This document shows positions 1-58,102 of a stretch of 58,102 bases of DNA, piece by piece. The translations under genes and the position numbers were made by a program. Source of the DNA: a virus. Taxonomy: Duplodnaviria; Caudoviricetes. Position 1 is the first letter of the stretch. Every line of letters starts with the position of its first letter. The stretch is taken from IMG/VR virus record IMGVR_UViG_3300046787_000172, positions 1 through 58,102 of that record. One strand, given 5' to 3'. The notes below the pieces were generated by a model that was not told where the DNA came from, made no database searches, and saw only the letters and a program-made list of their open reading frames with translations.

Positions 1-127
1 GACCAAGTTGCAAAAGCTTTTGGTATTACTGCTGGCCGTGTGCGCCAGATCGGAAACCCAGAAAAACTCGCAGACATCGCTGTGTCCATGGGGTTTAACC
101 GCAACCAAGTGTTCACTGAGCTGGGCA
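1..127. repeat. Terminal direct repeat, copy 1 (identical to 57976-58102); marks circular closure of the contig
   Basis: The first 127 nt match the last 127 nt, and the reading frame continues across the junction. Confidence 0.95.
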
Positions 128-3100
128 TTGAGTCGATCAATGAAGAGGCTGTTAACCTGACACAGGACAAAGAGTCTGTTGGCGGAGATGCTGATACCGA
201 GGGGGTGGTGGACGCTGCTGAGGTAGTGGTAGACGACACCGCTGAACGTGATGTTGAAGCTAACGCAGATGACTCTAGGTACTGGCAAAAGTCCAGTACT
301 GCTGGCAGTAAGTTGGCTGTGCAGATGGTACAAATTGCTGATGCCATTGATGCTTTGAGAGCTGCCGCCGCTGAGCTGAAGCAACTTGGCGTATCTGAAG
401 CTGCTGAATCTGTGCAGGCTCGTATTGACGAGCTGACAGCCAAGTCCGACACCCTGATAGCCACAGCGACTGAGAAGGCTGCGCCCAAAGCTGCCCCAGT
501 ATCCAAGGCCACAGCCACTGTCAAAGAAGCCCAGCAGCGTTGGAAAGACGCTGGCCGGGACATCACCAAGCTCTCGTCGGAGGACTTGGGCCTGCTGTTG
601 CCTTACGTGCGTGACACCATCAAAAACACAGAGCTCGCAGGCAAGATCACTGCTGAGCTGCAAAGCCGTGGAGAAGCCAATGCCGTTCAAGTCGAAAGCC
701 CAGCAGGGGTACCTGTTCAGCCAAAAGCCGAAACTGGCAAAGAAGTGGGCCGACAAGTACGGCGTGCCCCAAAGCCTGCCGCAGAAGGCAAAGCCCAAGT
801 CCCAGCCGTCATCCTCACCCAAGCAGAACAAGCCGCTCAAGCGTGGGATGTAGTCGCTGCTGACTTCCCAGAAGCTCCCAAGTTTGCGGACTTGACCAAG
901 GCCCAGCAGAACACCTTCATTGGCTTCGGCCCTGACAACTGGGAGCGCGGTGACGTTGAGCTTGAGTTGACCAAGCTGGCACGCGCTGCTGCGCCTACCC
1001 AGCGAGCCATACGATTGCGCCACGGTACAACCGCAGCCAACAAGGCCATGATAGAGAAGCTCGGACACATGGACCCGGAAGGTGGAGAGCGCCAGTACAC
1101 GTACTCAGAGTTTGGCCGTAAAGCTGTGTATCTAACCCGCCCTGAAGGCTGGTGGCTTGACAAAGAACAAGCCGCTGCTGGGCGTGCCGTTGTTTACGAC
1201 TCTTTTGTGGACGTTGAACTGCCAAGCGATGTAAACGTAGTCACAATAAATAACATGGCTGACTTTGAAGCGCTAGCTAAACGAGTCGGCGAACCAAGCG
1301 CACAGTCAATGGCTAACAAACTTGCCGTAGATGGGCTTGACTGGCTATCAACAGCCAAAGAATTGCGCTCTATCACATTAGACCAAGCAGTTCAAAAGTA
1401 CATTCGTGAGCAGAAACAGAGCGCCGCCAAGTATGGTGGGTTTGATACCGAGGGCGTTAACACCTTAGGCGAGCTGGCTGACTTTTTGAACGCCAATGTA
1501 AACAATCAGTACACTCAAACAACAGAAGCTGAACTGCGTACACGCATTCGCGACAACTGGCTTGACGCAAAGTCTTACGAGCTAAACACGTTTGGCGAAT
1601 CTGATGCAATGACGCAGAAGCTGATTGACGCTGGCGTGGACGTTATTGACATAGCCCCAGACGCAGACGTTGGAGTTGCTGCGGATCAGGTTGTGGTGTT
1701 GCGCCCTGAACTGGTCAAGCTTACCTCGACTGTAAAACAGCAAGAAGCTTTCTTACGTAAGTCGCGCCGCAGCGTCCGCACTGCTGACCAAAGCGGGACT
1801 GAGTTTGAGTCTGTTGAGGCTTCGCTGGACGACTTGTCCGGCTACTCTGAGGGTATCGCCGCTGGTATCCGTAGCCTGCGCAGCTCTGGCATGGGCAACG
1901 CTGTTGACGCCATTGACTCGTGGATGGTTACGTTCTCCCCAGTGTCGTGGGACGCCATCTACACCATGATCGACGGCAAGCGCACCATCATTTACAACGG
2001 TGTGATCCTCAAGGACAAGGTTCTGGCTACCACTGCCACGCTGCACGAAGTCGGCCATGGTATTGATGAGGTACAGGGCGGCGCTGGTAAGTTCTCCGGC
2101 GGTTCTGAGTTCAGAATGTCCCGCGTAAACGGCGAGCTGATGTCTATGCGTCCCGGCACGGTTGCAGACGAACTCTTGAACCACTGGGAAGACAGCAGTG
2201 AGACGTCTGCTTTGGGCGGCATGCTCAACTACCCACTGGACATGACAGACCCGGAAAACCGCTCGCTGACAATGCAAGAACTCCGTGAGGAAGTCTTCGC
2301 ACAGGTGTGGGCTTTTTCCAACATGAATGGCGGCATGGATTACCTCCGTGATAACCTGCCAACGACCTACGCTTTTATGGAGAAGGCACATGAACAAGTC
2401 AAAGCCACAAACTACCAACGCACCCAAGGTGCCCAGCAAGGTGCTCAGTCAGGACAAGTTCAAGCTGAACAGCAAAACGCGCAGCCTGCTGGAGCAATTC
2501 TTAGAGCCAGCCGCCAAGCCAAACAAGGACTGATCGACCGCAACATCGCTAAGCTGCCGAAGATGTCTCAGCAGCCGGTGAAGCGTGTAACCGAAGCCAT
2601 CGGTGATTTGGGTGGCAAGTACCTTGACTACGCCGTCTTTACCAGCGACTTGGTCAAGCGTGCTGTTGCTGCTGGCCTGCCTGCTGCTCAGACTTTCTCC
2701 GACCGCCTTGCTTCACGTAACGCCAAGGTCAGTGAAGAGGAACGCAAGATCGAAAAGATCGCCGACCGCTATGCGTCCATCGAAGATGAGAACAAGGGCT
2801 CCGGTCCCGGCTCGGTCAACGAGTTCTTATTTGAGTCCACCCGCACAGGCAAGTGGGGCTACGGAAAATACCGTGATGCCAAGATGGGCGCTGCGTTCGA
2901 TAAGCTGAAACCCAAGGCTCAGCAGTTCGTCAAAGACGTGTTTGCCCATGGTGATGCCACGCTGTCCAACAAGAAGAAGATTGTCTTGGAGGCAACCAAC
3001 TCCGAGTACGACGCCATGATTAAGGCAGCTCAGGACGCCGGTGACACCAAGACAGAGGCCACCCTCAAGGCTGAGAAAGCCGCCACGCTCAAGCGCTTCC

Positions 3101-5280
3101 AGACACTGTTCCGCATCCGCGATGGTGTACCCTACGCGCCCATCAAGCGCACTGGTTCGTACGTGGTAATTGGCGAGTCCGCTGAGTACCAAAAAGCCAA
3201 GGCCAACAACGACACTGCTACGCTCAAGAAGCTGGAGTCTGACCCAGACCACTACCATGTGTCGTTCACAGACACTAAGTGGCAAGCCCGTAGCCTGCGT
3301 GACAGACTGGCAGAGCAAGGCGTGTTCGCCGACCCGCAAGTTGTTTCGCGCTCTGAGTCGTTTGACGAGGCGTTCAGTGGCGAGGCCATGTTGCCAGCCC
3401 TGACAAAGATGCGTGCCGCTGTGGATCGTCGTGCTCAGGACTCTACTGGCAAGAAAGACCCAACTGCGGGCAAGCTGCTCAACATCATCAACCAGTTGTA
3501 CTTGGAGGCGTTGGCTGAGGGTAGTGCTCGCAAGTCTGAGATGCGTCGTCGTGGTGTGGCCGGTGAAGTGGACATGCTTCAGTCGTTTACCCAGCAGGGT
3601 CGTGCCGATGCCAACTTCTTGGCCAGCGTTGAGTTCGAGCCCAAGATTCAGGACGCCCTGCAGCAGATGCGCAACCAGTCACGCAAGGGTGACCGCGAAC
3701 GCAAGTCGGAAATCTTTGACGAGTTGACCCAACGCTACGCAGGTACGCTGGACCCACAGCCAAGCCCATTTATCAGTGGCTTGACCAACATGGCATCCAA
3801 GTTCTTCTTGGCCTCCAGCCCTGCGTACTACCTGCAGAACTTGACACAGCCGTTCATGATGTCGCTGCCTGCCATGGCAGGTCGCCATGACTACACCAAG
3901 GCCGCTGCAGAGCTGGCTAAAGCGTACGCTGAGCTTGGCCCACTGTTCAAGGATGTGAAGCTGTTTGACGAGCAGTTTGACTTCTCCGCAGTGCCTGCTG
4001 ATGTGCGTAAAGCCATCAACGAGTTGGTCAACCAAGGCAAGATCGACATCGGTCTGGCCACTGAGATCAACGAGTACAAGGTAGAAGCCGACAACAAACT
4101 CAGCAAGTTCGCGCAGCGCCTGAACAAGGGTATGCGTATGGCTGTCCAGAAGGTGGAAGCTACCAACCGCTTGTCTACAGCCATTGCAGCTTACCGACTG
4201 GAGTACGCCAAGACCAAGGACGCTGACAAAGCAACCCAGTACGCTGCTGACATCCTGACTGACACCCATGGCGACTACACCGCCTTTAACGCTCCTCGTG
4301 CGTTTAACACCCAGTGGGGTAAGGTGGCTTTGCAGTTCCGCAAGTTCCAGTTGATCCAGATCGCGTTCTACGCCAAGCTGATTCGTGATGCGTTCACTAA
4401 GCCGGACGAGCGTGCAGCCGCCATGAAGACACTGGCCTACTCGTTGGGTCACACTGGGGTGTTTGCTGGCCTCATGGGCTTGCCCGGCTACGCAGCTATC
4501 TCCGCCATCTTGGGTGCTTTTGGTGACGAGGACGAGCCGTACGATCTGACTGCTGAGATGCGCAAGGCGCTTGGCCCTGAGTGGGCTGACATGATTATGC
4601 GCGGCGCTCCGACCATTGTTGGTATGGACTTGTCCGGCAAGATCGGTGCAGGCAACATGCTGTCCATCATGCCATTCAGTGACGCTGACTTGAGCACCAA
4701 CGCAGGCCGCGCCGAAGCGTTTGGCACCTTGATGGGCGGTGCTGCTCTTGGCATGGCATCTCGCGTGGTAGACGGTCTTGGCTTGATCGCCAGTGGTGAC
4801 TACTACAAGGGTGTTGAGCGTGTGATGCCCAAGGGTGTGTCTGATGCGCTCAAAGCTGGTCGTCAAGCCACTGAGGGTATGACCCGCCGTAATGGTGATG
4901 TGGTCTTGCCTGAGAGCGAAATTGGCGCTATCTCGTCGGTGCTGACAGGTCTGGGCGTGCCATCTGTCCAACAGGCAGTGACTTACGAGCGTCAGAACCG
5001 CATGCGCGATATTACGCAGAACTTCCAAGACCGCACCACGCGTATCAAGAACGACTACGCCCAAGCAGTTCGCCAGAAGGACACTGCCGCCATGCAGCAA
5101 GCTCGTGAGGCATGGACTAAACTCCAGCAAGCACGTCAGCGTAACGGCTTGACACCACAACCAGTATCCAACCTGCTGAAAGCACCGCAGGAACAAGCGC
5201 AGCGTGAGAAGCGTACGATTGGTGGAGTACAGTATCGCGAAGGTCAGCGTAAACTGGCTGAAGATGTAGCAGCCAACTAA
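1..5280 (+). CDS. C-terminal part of the giant polyvalent (ejected/internal virion) protein that starts at 55954; ART-like, zincin metallopeptidase and PLxRFG-like regions
   Basis: Frame is open from base 1. Motifs: RHGT...AVYLT...DQVVVLRP (ART-like), LHEVGH...EEVFA (zincin), YAPIKRTGSY (PLxRFG-like). It follows two smaller ejection-protein genes. Confidence 0.85.
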   Translation, partial: DQVAKAFGITAGRVRQIGNPEKLADIAVSMGFNRNQVFTELGIESINEEAVNLTQDKESVGGDADTEGVVDAAEVVVDDTAERDVEANADDSRYWQKSSTAGSKLAVQMVQIADAIDALRAAAAELKQLGVSEAAESVQARIDELTAKSDTLIATATEKAAPKAAPVSKATATVKEAQQRWKDAGRDITKLSSEDLGLLLPYVRDTIKNTELAGKITAELQSRGEANAVQVESPAGVPVQPKAETGKEVGRQVRRAPKPAAEGKAQVPAVILTQAEQAAQAWDVVAADFPEAPKFADLTKAQQNTFIGFGPDNWERGDVELELTKLARAAAPTQRAIRLRHGTTAANKAMIEKLGHMDPEGGERQYTYSEFGRKAVYLTRPEGWWLDKEQAAAGRAVVYDSFVDVELPSDVNVVTINNMADFEALAKRVGEPSAQSMANKLAVDGLDWLSTAKELRSITLDQAVQKYIREQKQSAAKYGGFDTEGVNTLGELADFLNANVNNQYTQTTEAELRTRIRDNWLDAKSYELNTFGESDAMTQKLIDAGVDVIDIAPDADVGVAADQVVVLRPELVKLTSTVKQQEAFLRKSRRSVRTADQSGTEFESVEASLDDLSGYSEGIAAGIRSLRSSGMGNAVDAIDSWMVTFSPVSWDAIYTMIDGKRTIIYNGVILKDKVLATTATLHEVGHGIDEVQGGAGKFSGGSEFRMSRVNGELMSMRPGTVADELLNHWEDSSETSALGGMLNYPLDMTDPENRSLTMQELREEVFAQVWAFSNMNGGMDYLRDNLPTTYAFMEKAHEQVKATNYQRTQGAQQGAQSGQVQAEQQNAQPAGAILRASRQAKQGLIDRNIAKLPKMSQQPVKRVTEAIGDLGGKYLDYAVFTSDLVKRAVAAGLPAAQTFSDRLASRNAKVSEEERKIEKIADRYASIEDENKGSGPGSVNEFLFESTRTGKWGYGKYRDAKMGAAFDKLKPKAQQFVKDVFAHGDATLSNKKKIVLEATNSEYDAMIKAAQDAGDTKTEATLKAEKAATLKRFQTLFRIRDGVPYAPIKRTGSYVVIGESAEYQKAKANNDTATLKKLESDPDHYHVSFTDTKWQARSLRDRLAEQGVFADPQVVSRSESFDEAFSGEAMLPALTKMRAAVDRRAQDSTGKKDPTAGKLLNIINQLYLEALAEGSARKSEMRRRGVAGEVDMLQSFTQQGRADANFLASVEFEPKIQDALQQMRNQSRKGDRERKSEIFDELTQRYAGTLDPQPSPFISGLTNMASKFFLASSPAYYLQNLTQPFMMSLPAMAGRHDYTKAAAELAKAYAELGPLFKDVKLFDEQFDFSAVPADVRKAINELVNQGKIDIGLATEINEYKVEADNKLSKFAQRLNKGMRMAVQKVEATNRLSTAIAAYRLEYAKTKDADKATQYAADILTDTHGDYTAFNAPRAFNTQWGKVALQFRKFQLIQIAFYAKLIRDAFTKPDERAAAMKTLAYSLGHTGVFAGLMGLPGYAAISAILGAFGDEDEPYDLTAEMRKALGPEWADMIMRGAPTIVGMDLSGKIGAGNMLSIMPFSDADLSTNAGRAEAFGTLMGGAALGMASRVVDGLGLIASGDYYKGVERVMPKGVSDALKAGRQATEGMTRRNGDVVLPESEIGAISSVLTGLGVPSVQQAVTYERQNRMRDITQNFQDRTTRIKNDYAQAVRQKDTAAMQQAREAWTKLQQARQRNGLTPQPVSNLLKAPQEQAQREKRTIGGVQYREGQRKLAEDVAAN
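680..853 (+). CDS. Nested +1-frame small basic protein MPFKSKAQQGYLFSQKPKLAKKWADKY... (57 aa)
   Basis: GGAG at 670-673, 6 nt before ATG; genome-typical codons (TTC, AAG, TAC, CTG, GCC); resembles small phage proteins starting MPFKS. Confidence 0.7.
   Translation: MPFKSKAQQGYLFSQKPKLAKKWADKYGVPQSLPQKAKPKSQPSSSPKQNKPLKRGM
2390..2533 (+). CDS. Possible nested +1-frame peptide MNKSKPQ...LLEQFLEPAAKPNKD (47 aa)
   Basis: GGAG at 2379-2382, 7 nt before ATG; lies in the Gln-rich linker of the giant protein. Confidence 0.45.
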   Translation: MNKSKPQTTNAPKVPSKVLSQDKFKLNSKTRSLLEQFLEPAAKPNKD

Positions 5281-29283: not shown

Positions 29284-29442
29284 TTATCGGCTGAATCGCT
29301 CAGCCAAGTATTCCCGATATGCTGTCTCGGGGTCATCCATGTCCAAGGGGTTTGTGCCCATGTCAGCCTCGAAGATGAACGGCTCGCACTCTTCTTGGTC
29401 TTCGTTGATGTATACATACATTAGCTGTTGACGTTGGGACAT
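29284..29442 (-). CDS. 52-aa acidic early protein MSQRQQLMYVYINEDQEECEPFIFEADMGTNPLDMDDPETAYREYLAERFSR
   Basis: AGGAG RBS; not in the ORF track. Confidence 0.6.
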   Translation of the reverse strand: MSQRQQLMYVYINEDQEECEPFIFEADMGTNPLDMDDPETAYREYLAERFSR

Positions 29443-29451
29443 GATGACTCC

Positions 29452-29854
29452 TGATGTATACACACGTTGTGTATACGTACGTTGATGGGGTAATTATCCA
29501 AGGTGATATCCAAGGTTTGATGGGCTTGGATAGTCGATGTTAGTGGGTACTGATGCTGGAACCCGCATGGATATTGGGCTGCGAGAGGGCATAAGGGTTT
29601 ACCCGGGGGTAATTATCCAATTATCCAAAAAAGCTGGAGGGTCAGCGAGGATTTTAGGGTCGTTGTGATTGTGTGCGCTTTGCGCACCTTCACGTAAAAA
29701 CACACACGCATCGTCTGTGTGTACCTAAATACTTGGATAATTGTCTAATTGTCTAATTGCACGTCTAACCCCTTGATTTTAAAGGGAAACCTAATTATCC
29801 AAGGTAAAACACCCCTTGGATAATTGGATAATTAGATGTGATGTATACACACGT
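29452..29854. repeat. Iteron-like repeat region, probable replication origin
   Basis: Several direct and inverted TAATTATCCAA copies; IHF consensus at 29766-29778; bracketed by a 16-bp direct repeat. Confidence 0.65.
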
Positions 29855-30348
29855 CAGGCAGTGATGGCACTGCGTGCGGCCTTGGCTTCTGCGGTGAACG
29901 CCTCAGCATGGGCGATCATGTCAACTGCGACTGCCTTGAGTTCCATGAGCTTGGCCAGTGTTGCACCAGCCTTGAGTGCGCCGGTCTTCTTGTCTGTGAC
30001 ATAGCCGCCAGTCTTGGACATTTTGGCCTTCATGATACGTGCCTCGAATTGGTCAGGCAGTGACTCGAAGCCGGCACGATTGGAGATAACGATTGGCTCA
30101 CCCAATTGGGCGGCAAAGTACTCGCCAGCGGGTTTGTAGTTGCATGATGGGAATGCGGCTTGCTTGGCAATGGCTTGAACACCGCCGTTGGCGATACCAT
30201 TGCGGGCGGCTTGGCCCACTTTGCCCTTGGCATTGGCGAGCGCCATCTTGGTGTATGGGCTGGCGTCTTGCACGACAGACAGTTGACGTTCAGTCTTGGT
30301 TTTGCCGTAGACGTTGACCATTGCGGGAGTGAATTGTGCGAGTTCCAT
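29854..30348 (-). CDS. First early gene, basic Ala-rich hypothetical protein
   Basis: AAGGA RBS; 164 aa. Confidence 0.75.
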   Translation of the reverse strand: MELAQFTPAMVNVYGKTKTERQLSVVQDASPYTKMALANAKGKVGQAARNGIANGGVQAIAKQAAFPSCNYKPAGEYFAAQLGEPIVISNRAGFESLPDQFEARIMKAKMSKTGGYVTDKKTGALKAGATLAKLMELKAVAVDMIAHAEAFTAEAKAARSAITA

Positions 30349-30374
30349 GATGATTCCTTGTGTTGAATGGTTGA

Positions 30375-30935
30375 TCGGTGCAATGCACCACATAGCCCAC
30401 TGGTAACAATGAGCTATAGGTTGAATTGGTTTTGTGGCTTTCTGTTCTTGGTGCCACCCGTGACCTCAATGACCCTCGTGCATAGGTGGCCATTACCTGC
30501 GACCGTGATTCAACGGTGCGTCTAACTCCGGGGTTCTTGCCCGGTCCGTCCTGCAGATGCTCAGATACTCGATTTTGTGGGTGGCCTAGTGATTCGATCA
30601 CGGGTTGTCTCGCGACAATGCGTTCGCCCTGTGTGTTGCCCGCCAATGGACAGCGCACACTCAAGCGTTATCGGGTTTACTCGCCCCTTACCACAAACTC
30701 ACTGAAGTGAGATGCAATTGCGTGCCTTCGACTATTCACACGCACCTTGTCGCGCCACTGACAAGGGAGTCCAATATAAATTTTTAATGATCGGTTTCTC
30801 ATCAAAAGCCCCCTACCATGTGACCGCGTCAACCCGTAGGTATCCACACGCACCATTCCCGTAGGTCCGGCACTAGTCGGTAAAGAACAATCTCACATGA
30901 GGCGAACGGTGCGATCACCGTCCTACTGTAGGCAA
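30375..30935 (-). ncRNA. Candidate structured RNA or early leader with boxA-like sites
   Basis: No credible ORF; more than ten stems, a GNRA-capped hairpin, and boxA-like sites at 30778-30792 and 30880-30890. Confidence 0.45.
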
Positions 30936-30985
30936 CCTTGATAACCCAAGGCCCCTACACTCTAGGCAGGCTTGATAGTCGGCCA

Positions 30986-31024
30986 CCCCCTACAGGCCCC
31001 CCACGCCCCCACCCCGCCCCGCCC
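30986..31024 (-). other. G-run cluster (potential G-quadruplex) at the divergence point
   Basis: Six runs of 3-6 C on the + strand. Confidence 0.5.
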
Positions 31025-31066
31025 TCTGCTTACGACGCAGTCTTACAGCACATCAAACCCACGACA

Positions 31067-31162
31067 TGTATGTATACATACACCCCTAAAAACACCCTGC
31101 CCCCTTGTAAAAAAGCCCCAAAAAATTAAAAAACGTATGTACAATACGTGTGTATACATACA
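31067..31162. promoter_or_regulatory. Palindromic operators upstream of the RHH gene
   Basis: Perfect 16-bp palindrome TGTATGTATACATACA at 31067-31082 and a related copy at 31147-31162. Confidence 0.6.
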
Positions 31163-31175
31163 TTTGGAGCTCAAA

Positions 31176-31346
31176 ATGAAGCGTTGGAACCTGTATTTGC
31201 CTGAAGAATTGATCGAAAAATACCGTGTTTTGGCCACCCAAAAGGGCGTTTCTTCGGCTGAAATGGCCAGAATTGCCATGGAAAAGTACTACCAAGCCCT
31301 CGAAAAAGCCAAAAAACAGGCGTCGGAGACCGAAAATGCTGCCTGA
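31176..31346 (+). CDS. Ribbon-helix-helix (Arc/CopG-like) DNA-binding protein
   Basis: KRWNLYLPEELIEKY..LA.QKGVS.AEMAR.AM pattern; GGAG RBS. Confidence 0.8.
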   Translation: MKRWNLYLPEELIEKYRVLATQKGVSSAEMARIAMEKYYQALEKAKKQASETENAA

Positions 31347-55953: not shown

Positions 55954-58102
55954 ATGCCGTCTATTGCAGACCTGCGATCCGCCCTTGGGGCGTTTGCCAA
56001 CGACAAAAGCGATGAGCAGCTTCTGCAACTAGCTTCCACTGCGGCGGGGGTTTCCCCGGGCCGTATTGCTTCTGAGTATGGCTACAAGCCAACGGAATCC
56101 GGCGTTGCAGGGCTTCGCACTGGCGCTGCCATTGACCGCTATCAGGCAGGTCTGTATGGGCTGGGCGAGGCTGTTACCGGCGCTGACTTCTTTCGTCGCG
56201 GTCGCGAAGCCAATGAGTTTGAAGCCAACGTAGCATCTGAACGTGCTCGCGCTCAAGGCGCAATTGAGAGCTTTGAAGACGTCCAAGGTATTTCTGACCT
56301 GCCAAGCTATGTTGGTGGTTTGGCCATTGGCTCTGCCCCTTACATGGTTGAAGCCCTTGGCGGCGGTTTGGCTGCTCGCGGGTTGATGTCTGGCACTCGT
56401 GCCGCTCTGGGTACTGCCCGGGCTGCCGGTGACGTTGGTGCTGCTGCACAAGCCACTCGAGCGTTGCGTGCTGGCCAAACTGTTGGCGGTGTAGCTGCTG
56501 GTTATCCATCAGCAGTTGGTGACATTTTGCAATCGCAACGAGAGCAAGCCGACGGTCAGATTGACTTGGGTGCTGCGGCAGCGCTCGGCGTGCCGTACTC
56601 GGCGCTCAACGCTTTGGGCATTGAAGGTGCGCTGGCACGGCAGCAAGGTATTCGCTCGGGCATTGCCGCTTTGGATAGTATTCAAGGTCTGCGTGGCGGT
56701 CTTGCACGTGCTGGGGCTTCTGGTGTACGTACCGCTGGTATAGAAGGCGGCACCGAGACTCTGCAGGAGATGACCAGCCAGCTTGGTCGCATGGCCGTTG
56801 ACCCAAATGAAGCGTTTTTGTCCGATGCTGCGCTGGGTCGTTACAAAGAATCCGCCATCGGTGGCGCATTGCTCGGCGGTACTATTGGTGGCGCTACAGG
56901 CTTTGGCCGCAGTGAAGGTTACCGAGCTCCCATGCAGGAGCGCGACCTGACTCAGGAAGACACAAGTACCGAGCAAAAACCAGTTCTTGGTTTGCAGTAC
57001 AACCCACTTGCAGGCACTCCAATTGTTTTCCCGGATGGCACTGTTGCCTTGGGTAGTGAGCAGGAAATGCTGGCCCGCACTGGTATCAAAATGCCTGCCG
57101 CTGGCGAAACAGACCTGACTGCGCCTGCAGCTACAACTGCTGCACCTGCCGGTGAAACTAAACCGACAGTGCCGTCCATCTTCAGCGAAACAGATACTGC
57201 ACTGAACAAACTTGGTGTCAAGCCTACAAAGAATTCTCGCGGCATCTACGACTACTTGGTGGCCGAGGGCATCGACCCTGCTTCACCAGAAGCTGAACCA
57301 GTACTGAACGCTTTGGCCAGTAGCAAACTTGGCGAAGCCCGCAAGGCCGTTGGCGAAATCATTCGAGCAAGGAGTCCCCGTGGCACAGGAGTTTCTACTG
57401 TACAGCAGCCTGCAGGAGGCGTGGGAGTCGGGGGCGCTGTCGTTCAAGGAAGCGTGGGAAATGCAAGACCAGCTACTCCTGTCGCGGGAGCAGTGGTCGG
57501 AGGTACCCCAGTCACTGGAGCCCCACTTCAACAAGCTGGCATTCTTCCAGTCGCCAGCGGCCAACCATCTACCACTGTAACTACCGGAGCACCAAGTGGC
57601 ACTCAAGCCCCTCAAACCATCCAAGCAGCGCCGCAAGGACAAACAACCACCAGAGGTGCCGCTGGTACCACTACGGTAAAGCCAAACACGACCCTGCGTC
57701 TGACTAAGCAAGAAGACATTAAAGACCCAGACGCCGCGCTGGCTGACTTCGTTGAGATCGCTCGTGAGACCGGCAACACCGCTGGCATTGACGCAGCCTT
57801 GGCCGATGCTGCCAACAAGCGTCAGGATCAAAGGGATTTCACGAAGGCTGACCTCGACGAGATCATTGAGGCCCAACTTGGCAAGGGCAAAAACAAAGAG
57901 CGAGACCGCCAAATCTTGCGTGCCTACGTGCTTGCGCGTAAATCCGTTCCAGACAAGGATAAGGGCAGAGTTGTTGACCAAGTTGCAAAAGCTTTTGGTA
58001 TTACTGCTGGCCGTGTGCGCCAGATCGGAAACCCAGAAAAACTCGCAGACATCGCTGTGTCCATGGGGTTTAACCGCAACCAAGTGTTCACTGAGCTGGG
58101 CA
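55954..58102 (+). CDS. N-terminal part of the giant polyvalent ejection protein (continues to 5280; ~2433 aa in total)
   Basis: ATG at 55954; frame open to the window end and in frame with base 1; Gly/Ala-rich helices with an EGGTETLQE motif; absent from the ORF track because it has no stop before the window end. Confidence 0.85.
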   Translation, partial: MPSIADLRSALGAFANDKSDEQLLQLASTAAGVSPGRIASEYGYKPTESGVAGLRTGAAIDRYQAGLYGLGEAVTGADFFRRGREANEFEANVASERARAQGAIESFEDVQGISDLPSYVGGLAIGSAPYMVEALGGGLAARGLMSGTRAALGTARAAGDVGAAAQATRALRAGQTVGGVAAGYPSAVGDILQSQREQADGQIDLGAAAALGVPYSALNALGIEGALARQQGIRSGIAALDSIQGLRGGLARAGASGVRTAGIEGGTETLQEMTSQLGRMAVDPNEAFLSDAALGRYKESAIGGALLGGTIGGATGFGRSEGYRAPMQERDLTQEDTSTEQKPVLGLQYNPLAGTPIVFPDGTVALGSEQEMLARTGIKMPAAGETDLTAPAATTAAPAGETKPTVPSIFSETDTALNKLGVKPTKNSRGIYDYLVAEGIDPASPEAEPVLNALASSKLGEARKAVGEIIRARSPRGTGVSTVQQPAGGVGVGGAVVQGSVGNARPATPVAGAVVGGTPVTGAPLQQAGILPVASGQPSTTVTTGAPSGTQAPQTIQAAPQGQTTTRGAAGTTTVKPNTTLRLTKQEDIKDPDAALADFVEIARETGNTAGIDAALADAANKRQDQRDFTKADLDEIIEAQLGKGKNKERDRQILRAYVLARKSVPDKDKGRVVDQVAKAFGITAGRVRQIGNPEKLADIAVSMGFNRNQVFTELG
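57380..57580 (+). CDS. Nested +1-frame acidic protein MAQEFLLYSSLQEAWESGALSFKEAWEMQDQLL... (66 aa)
   Basis: AAGGAG at 57369-57374, 5 nt before GTG; globular-looking sequence where the host frame is low complexity. Confidence 0.65.
   Translation: MAQEFLLYSSLQEAWESGALSFKEAWEMQDQLLLSREQWSEVPQSLEPHFNKLAFFQSPAANHLPL
57596..57679 (+). CDS. Possible nested +1-frame basic peptide MALKPLKPSKQRRKDKQPPEVPLVPLR (27 aa)
   Basis: GGAG at 57586-57589, 6 nt before GTG; follows the previous nested ORF. Confidence 0.4.
   Translation: MALKPLKPSKQRRKDKQPPEVPLVPLR
57976..58102. repeat. Terminal direct repeat, copy 2
   Basis: Identical to 1-127. Confidence 0.95.

Follow-up and report, generated by a model that had tools for sequence, protein, structure and literature searches.

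A conserved, covarying leader RNA of an undescribed family precedes the predicted early genes of a group of uncultivated phages

The untranslated leader that precedes the minus-strand genes of a 58,102-bp phage genome is a conserved, covarying, strand-specific multi-helix RNA belonging to an undescribed family, and it heads the predicted early genes in a group of uncultivated phages. A preliminary description, made from the letters of this genome, had proposed a large structured non-coding RNA of no recognised family at 30375-30775, ahead of the minus-strand early genes, and had listed ten stems, a possible switch and several candidate functions. Its central proposal is borne out by strong covariation in five alignments and by an excess of G.U pairs on the minus strand, and the region is very probably a genuine structured RNA. 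Its limits have to be redrawn: the region is indeed structured, but the RNA extends further 5' than was proposed, to at least position 30923.

The stretch of DNA that we analysed (the window) is a complete virus record of 58,102 bp with direct terminal repeats. The leader region is an 824-nt gap (30352-31175) between a minus-strand gene (29854-30351) and a plus-strand RHH gene that begins at 31176. Minus-strand genes run leftward from 30351 to about 5.3 kb and include those for a family-A DNA polymerase, a helicase, a primase-helicase and nucleases. The genes running rightward from 31176 encode the RHH protein, large terminase, portal, capsid, tail and internal virion proteins, together with a DarB-like giant protein that spans the ends of the record. 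A PHROGs scan of 48 proteins revealed no phage RNA polymerase, and the terminase shares just 35-39% identity with those of the nearest cultured phages. The phage resembles a lytic podovirus rather than a lambdoid phage. Two iterons and a G-rich tract (30926-31010) adjoin the leader on its upstream side, where two related contigs end. Beyond the first gene lies another non-coding region, packed with TTGGATAATT repeats.

The first early gene (29854-30351, minus strand) encodes 165 amino acids; its start codon lies at 30349-51, behind a Shine-Dalgarno sequence AAGGAA at 30354-59. Its product has 187 relatives, and among the best 120 listed, 119 are unnamed or called 'hypothetical protein', the remaining one bearing the source name nickel-dependent lactate racemase. 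Neither Pfam nor PHROGs yielded a family for it. An AlphaFold2 model (pLDDT 84.6) gave no match in the PDB at E 0.001 or better with Foldseek, and the best VIA-align Z of 5.2 was within background for helical models, with no clear fold match. The first gene thus offers no clue to the role of the leader RNA.

Relatives of the region were collected by protein, nucleotide and pattern searches. A search with the 165-aa protein yielded 20 viral loci (two of them cut by contig ends), all with a gap of 694-872 nt between the RHH gene and the first gene, and BLAST with the window's intergenic gap matched all 20. In several lineages the middle of the region (30455-30721) is swapped for unrelated sequence of similar length while the flanks are kept. 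An 18-letter pattern representing the most conserved block occurred in 29 viral stretches, 19 of which are relatives, some located before a different first gene. The same pattern recovered at least ten strong and at least two weak true relatives among the 118 stretches listed from metagenome contigs, and a single true relative among 99 stretches in genome contigs. The latter (L095) is a 1.1-kb contig binned in a metagenome-assembled genome, which is too little for us to assign a host. A gapped pattern added two further distinct sequences (L322 and L299/L306). The full 3' core of the leader (30432-30550) is present in 34 distinct related sequences from viral and metagenome contigs; L014, which lacks part of it, was excluded from the core counts. 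Neither blastn of the window's intergenic region, the leader of L028 and a shorter unit from L045 against 50,697 phage records, nor tblastn of the first gene against phage records, produced a match.

Folding energy alone does not set the leader above chance. The minimum free energy of the 401-nt minus strand is -134.6 kcal/mol, compared with -129.2 ± 6.4 kcal/mol for dinucleotide shuffles (z -0.84). An energy as low is reached by 22 of 100 shuffles, and the plus strand gives a z of -0.47. This was one of the checks named in the preliminary description, and on neither strand was the outcome better than shuffles. Support for the fold is instead comparative, and here another of those checks, covariation among homologous intergenic regions, returned abundant compensatory changes above both shuffled and slid controls.

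For the comparative analysis, segments were aligned with MAFFT, helices were written by hand, and paired cells were counted, with shuffled sequences and slid pairing partners as controls. In all six segment counts the observed paired share was reached by none of 500 shuffles. Across the five alignments 87-98% of cells were paired, versus 20-63% with slid partners. In the 3' core (32 sequences) 86.7% of cells were paired, compared with 69.0% after shuffling and 22-39% with slid partners; 16 of its 20 pairs change on both sides, with 118 such cells versus 38.8 in shuffles. Fitting the same 32 sequences to a model of the core (R1) raised these values to 92.1% paired (69.1% shuffled, 21-39% slid) and 143 cells with changes on both sides; since an alignment fitted in this way leans towards the structure, we rely on the MAFFT figures.

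The other segments behaved similarly. The P1 and P2 hairpins, counted together in 28 sequences, had 87.0% of cells paired (62.5% shuffled, 30-56% slid), and the P9 and P10 hairpins, counted in 24 sequences that omit the window's own lineage and its nearest sister, where P9 is built differently, had 89.3% (75.5% shuffled, 24-63% slid). In pseudoknot helix S1 (32 sequences) the share was 98.4% (90.8% shuffled, 20-51% slid), with one pair changing from AU in 24 sequences to GC in eight. The 5'-most hairpin, P0, reached 98.3% in 15 distinct sequences (94.5% shuffled, 28-61% slid), with changes on both sides in three of eight pairs and 14 G.U cells. G.U cells outnumber A.C cells by 32 to 9 in the core, an excess that identifies the minus strand as the RNA strand. 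Applied to the window's four closest relatives, RNAalifold gave 120 pairs, 21 of them with compensatory changes.

Read 5' to 3' on the minus strand, the whole untranslated leader occupies 30352-30944, with covarying helices from 30923 down to 30377. Its length is at least 440 nt when counted from the BoxA-like motif described below, and probably about 590 nt overall; the 5' end is uncertain, lying at least as far out as 30923 and possibly at about 30941-30944. The first helix is P0 (arms 30916-30923 and 30904-30911, loop AUCG), which covaries in the 15 sequences counted and sits 110-140 nt upstream of a conserved A/T-rich, BoxA-like motif. Fifteen nucleotides after P0 comes an upstream BoxA-like motif, GTTCTTTACCG (30878-30888), and further on the main one, GATCATTAAAA (30782-30792), which forms the most conserved unpaired block 5' of P1.

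P1 (arms 30760-66 and 30745-51) displays a conserved GUGGCG-type loop (30752-59) and occupies the place that boxB has in a nut site; all seven of its pairs change on both sides, and 88.9% of cells are paired. P2 (30720-30743) follows, a covarying hairpin with a conserved, A-rich, 14-nt loop, in which 84.4% of cells are paired and two of five pairs change on both sides. Both were among the ten stems of the preliminary description (P2 as 30719-24/30739-44), all of which can be drawn in the sequence. Seven of the ten are kept in relatives, four family-wide and three in the window's own lineage; two fail, and one (P10) sits at a place where other lineages have a strongly covarying hairpin. P1 and P2, together with P5 and P6 of the core, make up the four with compensatory changes family-wide.

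Between P2 and the core, RNAalifold of the four close relatives outlines a central multibranch domain (30574-30697), the sequence of which is lineage-specific and replaced in other lineages. It is closed by P3, in which 30691-97 pairs with 30574-80. The preliminary description had given 30691-97 a second complement, 30431-37, and had suggested a switch between the two. The first partner is upheld by L018, where both sides change; the second is unchanged there, and as 30431-37 does not follow the L018 change, the switch is unsupported. Two of the local hairpins proposed for this part of the leader, 30605-18 and 30698-30711, are kept in the four closest relatives, and the tetraloop of the former varies between GCGA, GUGA and GAGA among close relatives, all of the GNRA type. 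A third proposed hairpin, 30589-30601, is broken in two of the four, and its place is taken by a covarying long-range pairing of 30670-73 with 30595-98.

The conserved 3' core consists of P5, P6, an H-type pseudoknot, the unpaired sequence UGAGGU and P8. P5 (30528-30544) is a hairpin with a 7-nt AAGAA-type loop and a covarying stem in which 94-95% of cells are paired. P6 (30499-30519, of which 30502-17 had been described) has 87.5-91.7% of cells paired in the model-fitted alignment and changes on both sides in five of six pairs. In the pseudoknot (30469-30498), S1 links ARGU, directly 5' of P7, with ACYU in the P7 loop (in the window AGGU at 30495-98 and ACCU at 30484-87), and S2 is P7 itself (30488-93 with 30469-74), with changes on both sides in four of five pairs. 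UGAGGU (30463-30468) is near-invariant, its columns being invariant or at least 90% conserved in the 32 sequences. P8 (30434-30457) carries a near-invariant, A-rich loop of 14 nt, ACCAAGAACAGMAA (30439-30452), on a stem that changes on both sides in all five pairs, with 93.8% of cells paired. The stem 30453-58/30485-90, which had been proposed in this part of the leader, falls away: 43.2% of its cells are paired, versus 44.8% in shuffles.

Two hairpins separate the core from the gene. P9 (30392-30417) is kept in the four closest relatives. P10 (30377-30389), the final helix ahead of the ribosome site, is invariant in those relatives and so draws no support from the window's lineage, where RNAalifold pairs only its 3' arm (30377-30382), with 30546-30551. 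In other lineages, however, a strongly covarying hairpin stands at its place: in 24 sequences seven of nine pairs change on both sides and 95.8% of cells are paired.

That the region encodes a protein, in the frame 30290-30664 or another, or that its stems arose by chance, is hardly credible. In the window, L009 and L018 the frame has no stops, and the folding energy is, as stated, no better than that of shuffles. Chance is nonetheless excluded by the covariation controls, and coding in 30290-30664 is ruled out by two in-frame stops in L013, by the lack of a comparable ORF in the other 23 leaders listed (from other lineages), and by the distribution of changes, only 7-8 of 27-29 of which fall at third positions (no excess). 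Indels of 1, 2 and 16 nt occur in this frame's region among close relatives, and no Pfam or PHROG family was found for it. The absence of a credible ORF, which the preliminary description had also made a check on its proposal, is therefore confirmed.

The RNA itself appears to be new. In agreement with the preliminary description, which recognised no family, the whole window had no match in Rfam 15 at the gathering score; at E values up to 10, the interval 30200-31300 gave three weak matches to miRNA models, at 31055-31171, outside the leader finding. ARAGORN found no tRNA or tmRNA genes in the whole window. No description of the leader RNA was found in the literature searched, and the 15-nt loop sequence had no occurrence among the literature matches listed, which were unrelated to phages and for which only two shorter loop words were counted. 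With no Rfam family, no cultured-phage match and no published description found, we regard the fold as probably undescribed.

The conserved A/T-rich motif, present once in the window, was considered as a promoter and rejected in favour of a transcribed motif. A promoter scan yielded one weak sigma-70-like site (ATGAGA-18-TATATT at 30802-30773), the second hexamer of which is not conserved in relatives; because of this, and because P0 shows RNA-type covariation further upstream, we take the motif to be transcribed. It most likely lies in the transcript and not in a promoter. RNA-library contigs from two studies span it.

PMC5725501 gives GYTCTTTAANA, derived from rrn and suhB, as a gamma-proteobacterial BoxA consensus. 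Compared with that consensus, the aligned motif in 28 sequences agrees at 8 of 11 positions in two, 9 in 14, 10 in 11 and all 11 in one. Perfect matches to this consensus as quoted occur in L233 and in the upstream copy of L157; position 4 is A instead of C in five of the 28 sequences. Both of the window's motifs match at 9 of 11 positions, and matches with two mismatches occur in the window at chance frequency (68 versus 54 ± 7.6 expected). Two BoxA-like copies, separated by about 100-130 nt, occur at several loci, the window among them; visual inspection of the alignment shows the upstream copy GTTCTTTACCG conserved in 7 of the 17 distinct intergenic regions.

RNA libraries from four studies contain contigs, 85-99% identical in sequence, that overlap parts of the leader and first gene; they are short and of low depth, give no information on strand or level, and could stem from DNA carry-over. 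A 704-nt contig spans 30241-30944 (X4), and another library contributed contigs of 521 nt (30420-30941) and 172 nt (30770-30941; both X11). The ends at 30941 and 30944 in two studies are a weak hint of where the RNA begins; other contigs extend to 30981 (X1) and 31060 (X6). Word shares in RNA-library runs are small (0.05-0.18), so we claim no habitat. The interval 31068-31181 is without cover in four RNA-library runs, an observation that carries no weight.

A minimal form of the core occurs in three other phage lineages (the L045, L274 and L316 types). Model R1 scores 40 bits, with E about 1e-8, on L045, L244 and L231, which retain pseudoknot S1, UGAGGU and the P8 loop. In L045 the unit comes after a divergent pair of cI/cro-like HTH genes and is followed by a terminator-like site (1125-1144 plus a T run) and then by genes on the same strand. 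The order in the L274 lineage is module, second hairpin with a similar loop, terminator-like site and gene. In the L316 lineage, read directly in the sequence, promoter-like hexamers are followed by the module, an 8-bp stem with seven T, and the gene; neither the hexamers nor the stem was listed by the scan, the loop of the stem exceeding its limit. The minimal core thus sits between a putative early promoter or cro-like gene and a putative intrinsic terminator, as nut and put sites do.

Of the functions suggested in the preliminary description (RNA antiterminator, protein sponge or anti-defence decoy), the first fits best. Our preferred reading, held tentatively, is that the leader may be a nut- or put-like, cis-acting leader for processive antitermination, much larger than either model; we prefer it because of the BoxA-like motifs and the position of the minimal relatives ahead of terminators, and the lack of a recognisable phage RNA polymerase is in keeping with it. 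In such a mechanism, host RNA polymerase would transcribe the leader first; the BoxA-like motifs would load host NusB and NusE, and P1 and the pseudoknot/P8 core would bind either a partner protein or the elongation complex. This would let the polymerase resist Rho and the following terminator-like hairpin and read the early arm of about 25 kb. Without such resistance, an RNA that is long and untranslated would be exposed to Rho.

Several observations weigh against antitermination. The minus-strand early arm of the window has few terminator-like sites (5 versus 20.6 expected, one of them on the minus strand). P9 failed the terminator-like rule in the window, as it did in L021; that it passed in L028 and L023, two of the four members scanned, speaks for the reading. 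The two mismatches in each of the window's BoxA-like motifs and the A at position 4 in five sequences also count against it, as do the unlikeness of P1 to boxB, the N-like protein not seen among the small early ORFs and the failure of model R1 to match HK022, all treated below or above. A leader of 440-590 nt with a lineage-specific central domain also far exceeds the needs of known nut and put sites.

Comparison with known systems shows likenesses in placement and differences in form. As in a lambda-type nut site, an unpaired BoxA-like motif precedes, by about 13 nt, a hairpin whose loop is conserved, near the start of what would be the first phage transcript. Lambda boxB is a short hairpin with a GNRA-like pentaloop that is bound by N. 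P1, in contrast, has a 7-bp stem and a loop of 6-8 nt (GUGGCG, GUAGCG or GUGACG type), and the BoxA-like motif is only the start of a 440-590-nt fold. Nor was an arginine-rich, N-like protein seen by eye among the small early ORFs, which are without Pfam or PHROG family.

The put RNAs of HK022 are described in PMC9378689 as RNAs of about 70 nt with two stem-loops, located downstream of PL and PR, that act on the zinc-binding domain of the RNA polymerase beta' subunit and need no BoxA. Set beside that account, the minimal relatives (L045, L274 and L316) likewise offer what looks like a cis-acting folded RNA after early promoters or cro and before terminators, with no obvious protein partner; the leader RNA, unlike put, is 6-8 times larger by the sizes given there and has a pseudoknot core. 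A search of the HK022 genome (40,751 bp) with model R1 gave nothing at E values up to 10, so the likeness to put is one of position and presumed role, not of descent.

Leaders of rRNA operons also combine a hairpin (here P0) and then a BoxA-like motif within a long structured untranslated RNA, and some members of the family match the quoted consensus at 11 of 11 positions; here, however, no boxC was identified, no leader-trailer helix encloses a product RNA, and a protein-coding operon lies downstream. Large Rfam non-coding RNAs of bacteria and phages for which no function is known, such as GOLLD and ROOL, are similarly several hundred nucleotides long, rich in helices, phage-borne and found by comparison; they differ in that the present leader lies directly before an early gene, not beside tRNAs, and has no Rfam match.

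An extension of the antitermination reading, which we consider somewhat unlikely, is that the core could represent a new class of RNA that modifies RNA polymerase, put-like in working without dedicated phage proteins and unrelated in fold. It would be spread over lytic podovirus-like and temperate lambdoid-like environmental phages, and in the phages studied here it would have expanded to a leader of 440-590 nt able to recruit host Nus factors as well. To our knowledge, RNA-based processive antitermination has been well studied in just two phage systems, the nut sites with N and the put RNAs, and coliphages are the source of both. A third, unrelated fold at the same genomic position in many uncultivated phages would, if antitermination is the correct reading, imply that phages redirect host RNA polymerase through RNA in more ways, and more often, than those two models suggest. 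The leader also supplies a defined, testable module in its BoxA-like motif, P1 loop, pseudoknot and P8 loop. As far as we know, solid covariation support is rare for natural RNA structures several hundred nucleotides long, and each such RNA has opened new biology.

The order of fold, terminator-like hairpin, ribosome site and gene, which recurs both in the family and in the minimal relatives, would also suit a sensing leader, either a riboswitch or an attenuator. Binding of a ligand to the core, whether the first gene's product, a host protein or a small molecule, would decide whether P9 or a terminator forms, or whether the first gene is translated. UGAGGU and the P8 loop resemble binding surfaces, and ACYU in the P7 loop, which covaries in its pairing with the upstream ARGU, has by eye an alternative partner in an invariant AGGU just downstream. 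We nevertheless judge a sensing leader unlikely. No lineage-wide overlap of core helices with the 5' arm of P9 was found by eye, P10 leaves the ribosome site uncovered, and P9 fails the terminator-like rule in the window. In size, and in having a variable central domain, the leader does not resemble known riboswitches, and Rfam has no match.

The loop of P8 bears on a different proposal, that a trans-acting RNA might be cut or terminated from the leader and act as a decoy or sponge whose target is a host RNA-binding protein (for example Hfq, through this loop) or a defence system. A-R-N triplets bind the distal face of Hfq. As a feature of sequence, the loop reads four of them in most members (AAG AAC AGM AAG), in keeping with the rule of three or more consecutive unpaired triplets, and the second hairpin of the L274 lineage has a similar loop with five. 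The unit of the L045 type ends at a strong terminator-like site and could be a free RNA of about 330 nt, and many relatives of the first gene lie on contigs of just 1-1.4 kb or so. Yet the loop is far more fixed than the A-R-N rule requires, and L012 and L005 break one triplet; the main family is without a clear terminator between RNA and gene, and no partner was identified. A trans-acting role seems to us quite improbable. Even if antitermination should prove wrong, the 14-nt loop, near-invariant on a stem that covaries freely, indicates that there is a conserved partner to be found.

Antitermination also has to be weighed against a role in replication or packaging, either as a transcript that primes or activates an origin or as a structure in single-stranded DNA. 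Such a role could draw on the surroundings of the leader: the iterons and G-rich tract upstream, the TTGGATAATT-repeat region after the first gene, and the two related contigs that end in the iteron/G-tract region. We consider it very improbable. Nothing ties the core itself to replication, and the minimal relatives lie in immunity-region leaders before terminators. The covarying helices, moreover, are strand-specific, include many G.U pairs and extend up to the ribosome site of the first gene.

The non-coding DNA surrounding the divergent promoter zone contains five copies of the palindrome TGTATACA (window positions 29409, 29455, 29842, 31071 and 31151), against 0.35 expected. All five lie in non-coding DNA, either around the divergent promoter zone or adjoining the ribbon-helix-helix (RHH) gene, and relatives carry copies of a GTGTATACAC-type palindrome at positions matching those in the window. 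The palindromes are likely to be operators of the RHH protein or of another repressor.

Upstream of the leader RNA, at 30926-31010, the minus strand carries a G-rich tract of ~45 nt and, after it, two TATCAAGNNTGCCTA-type direct repeats. Relatives have a different repeat pair, GGTAGCGGNCNGACCAGTAGT, at this same place, which suggests that the repeat and its presumed binding protein change together. The related contigs L004 and L008 both terminate within this zone of G-tract and repeats.

A second non-coding stretch, of ~390 nt (29464-29853), lies directly downstream of the first early gene and is dense with TTGGATAATT-like words and CAATTAGACAATTAGACAATTATCC, in both direct and inverted copies; this repeat-rich stretch could be either an origin or an array of operators. 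The gene for the 165-aa protein (29854-30351) is thus isolated, being flanked on both sides by long non-coding regions. Among the matches listed (P0001-P0120), many clusters of relatives of this protein occur only on contigs of ~1.0-1.4 kb, a length roughly equal to that of leader plus gene; such contigs might be assembled transcripts.

Related leaders occur in other genomic arrangements. A minimal unit of ~330 nt, found in L045 and also in L244, L231 and L314, retains the pseudoknot, the UGAGGU motif and the P8 loop; here, divergent helix-turn-helix (HTH) genes are followed by the minimal unit, a terminator-like site and then further genes, an order that places the unit in a lambdoid-style immunity region. 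Another phage lineage (L274, L268, L304, L305, L309 and L317) possesses a long leader with two hairpins whose loops, AGCCAAGAACAGAA and CGCAAGAACAGCAGC, are related to each other, and in this lineage the two-hairpin leader precedes a terminator-like site and then the first gene.

Elsewhere in the window, a very large ORF exits the end of the record and resumes at its start (55954-58101 and 1-5280), comprising segments of 716 aa and 1,759 aa. Its C-terminal part has matches to families of DarB-like antirestriction proteins and of internal virion proteins.
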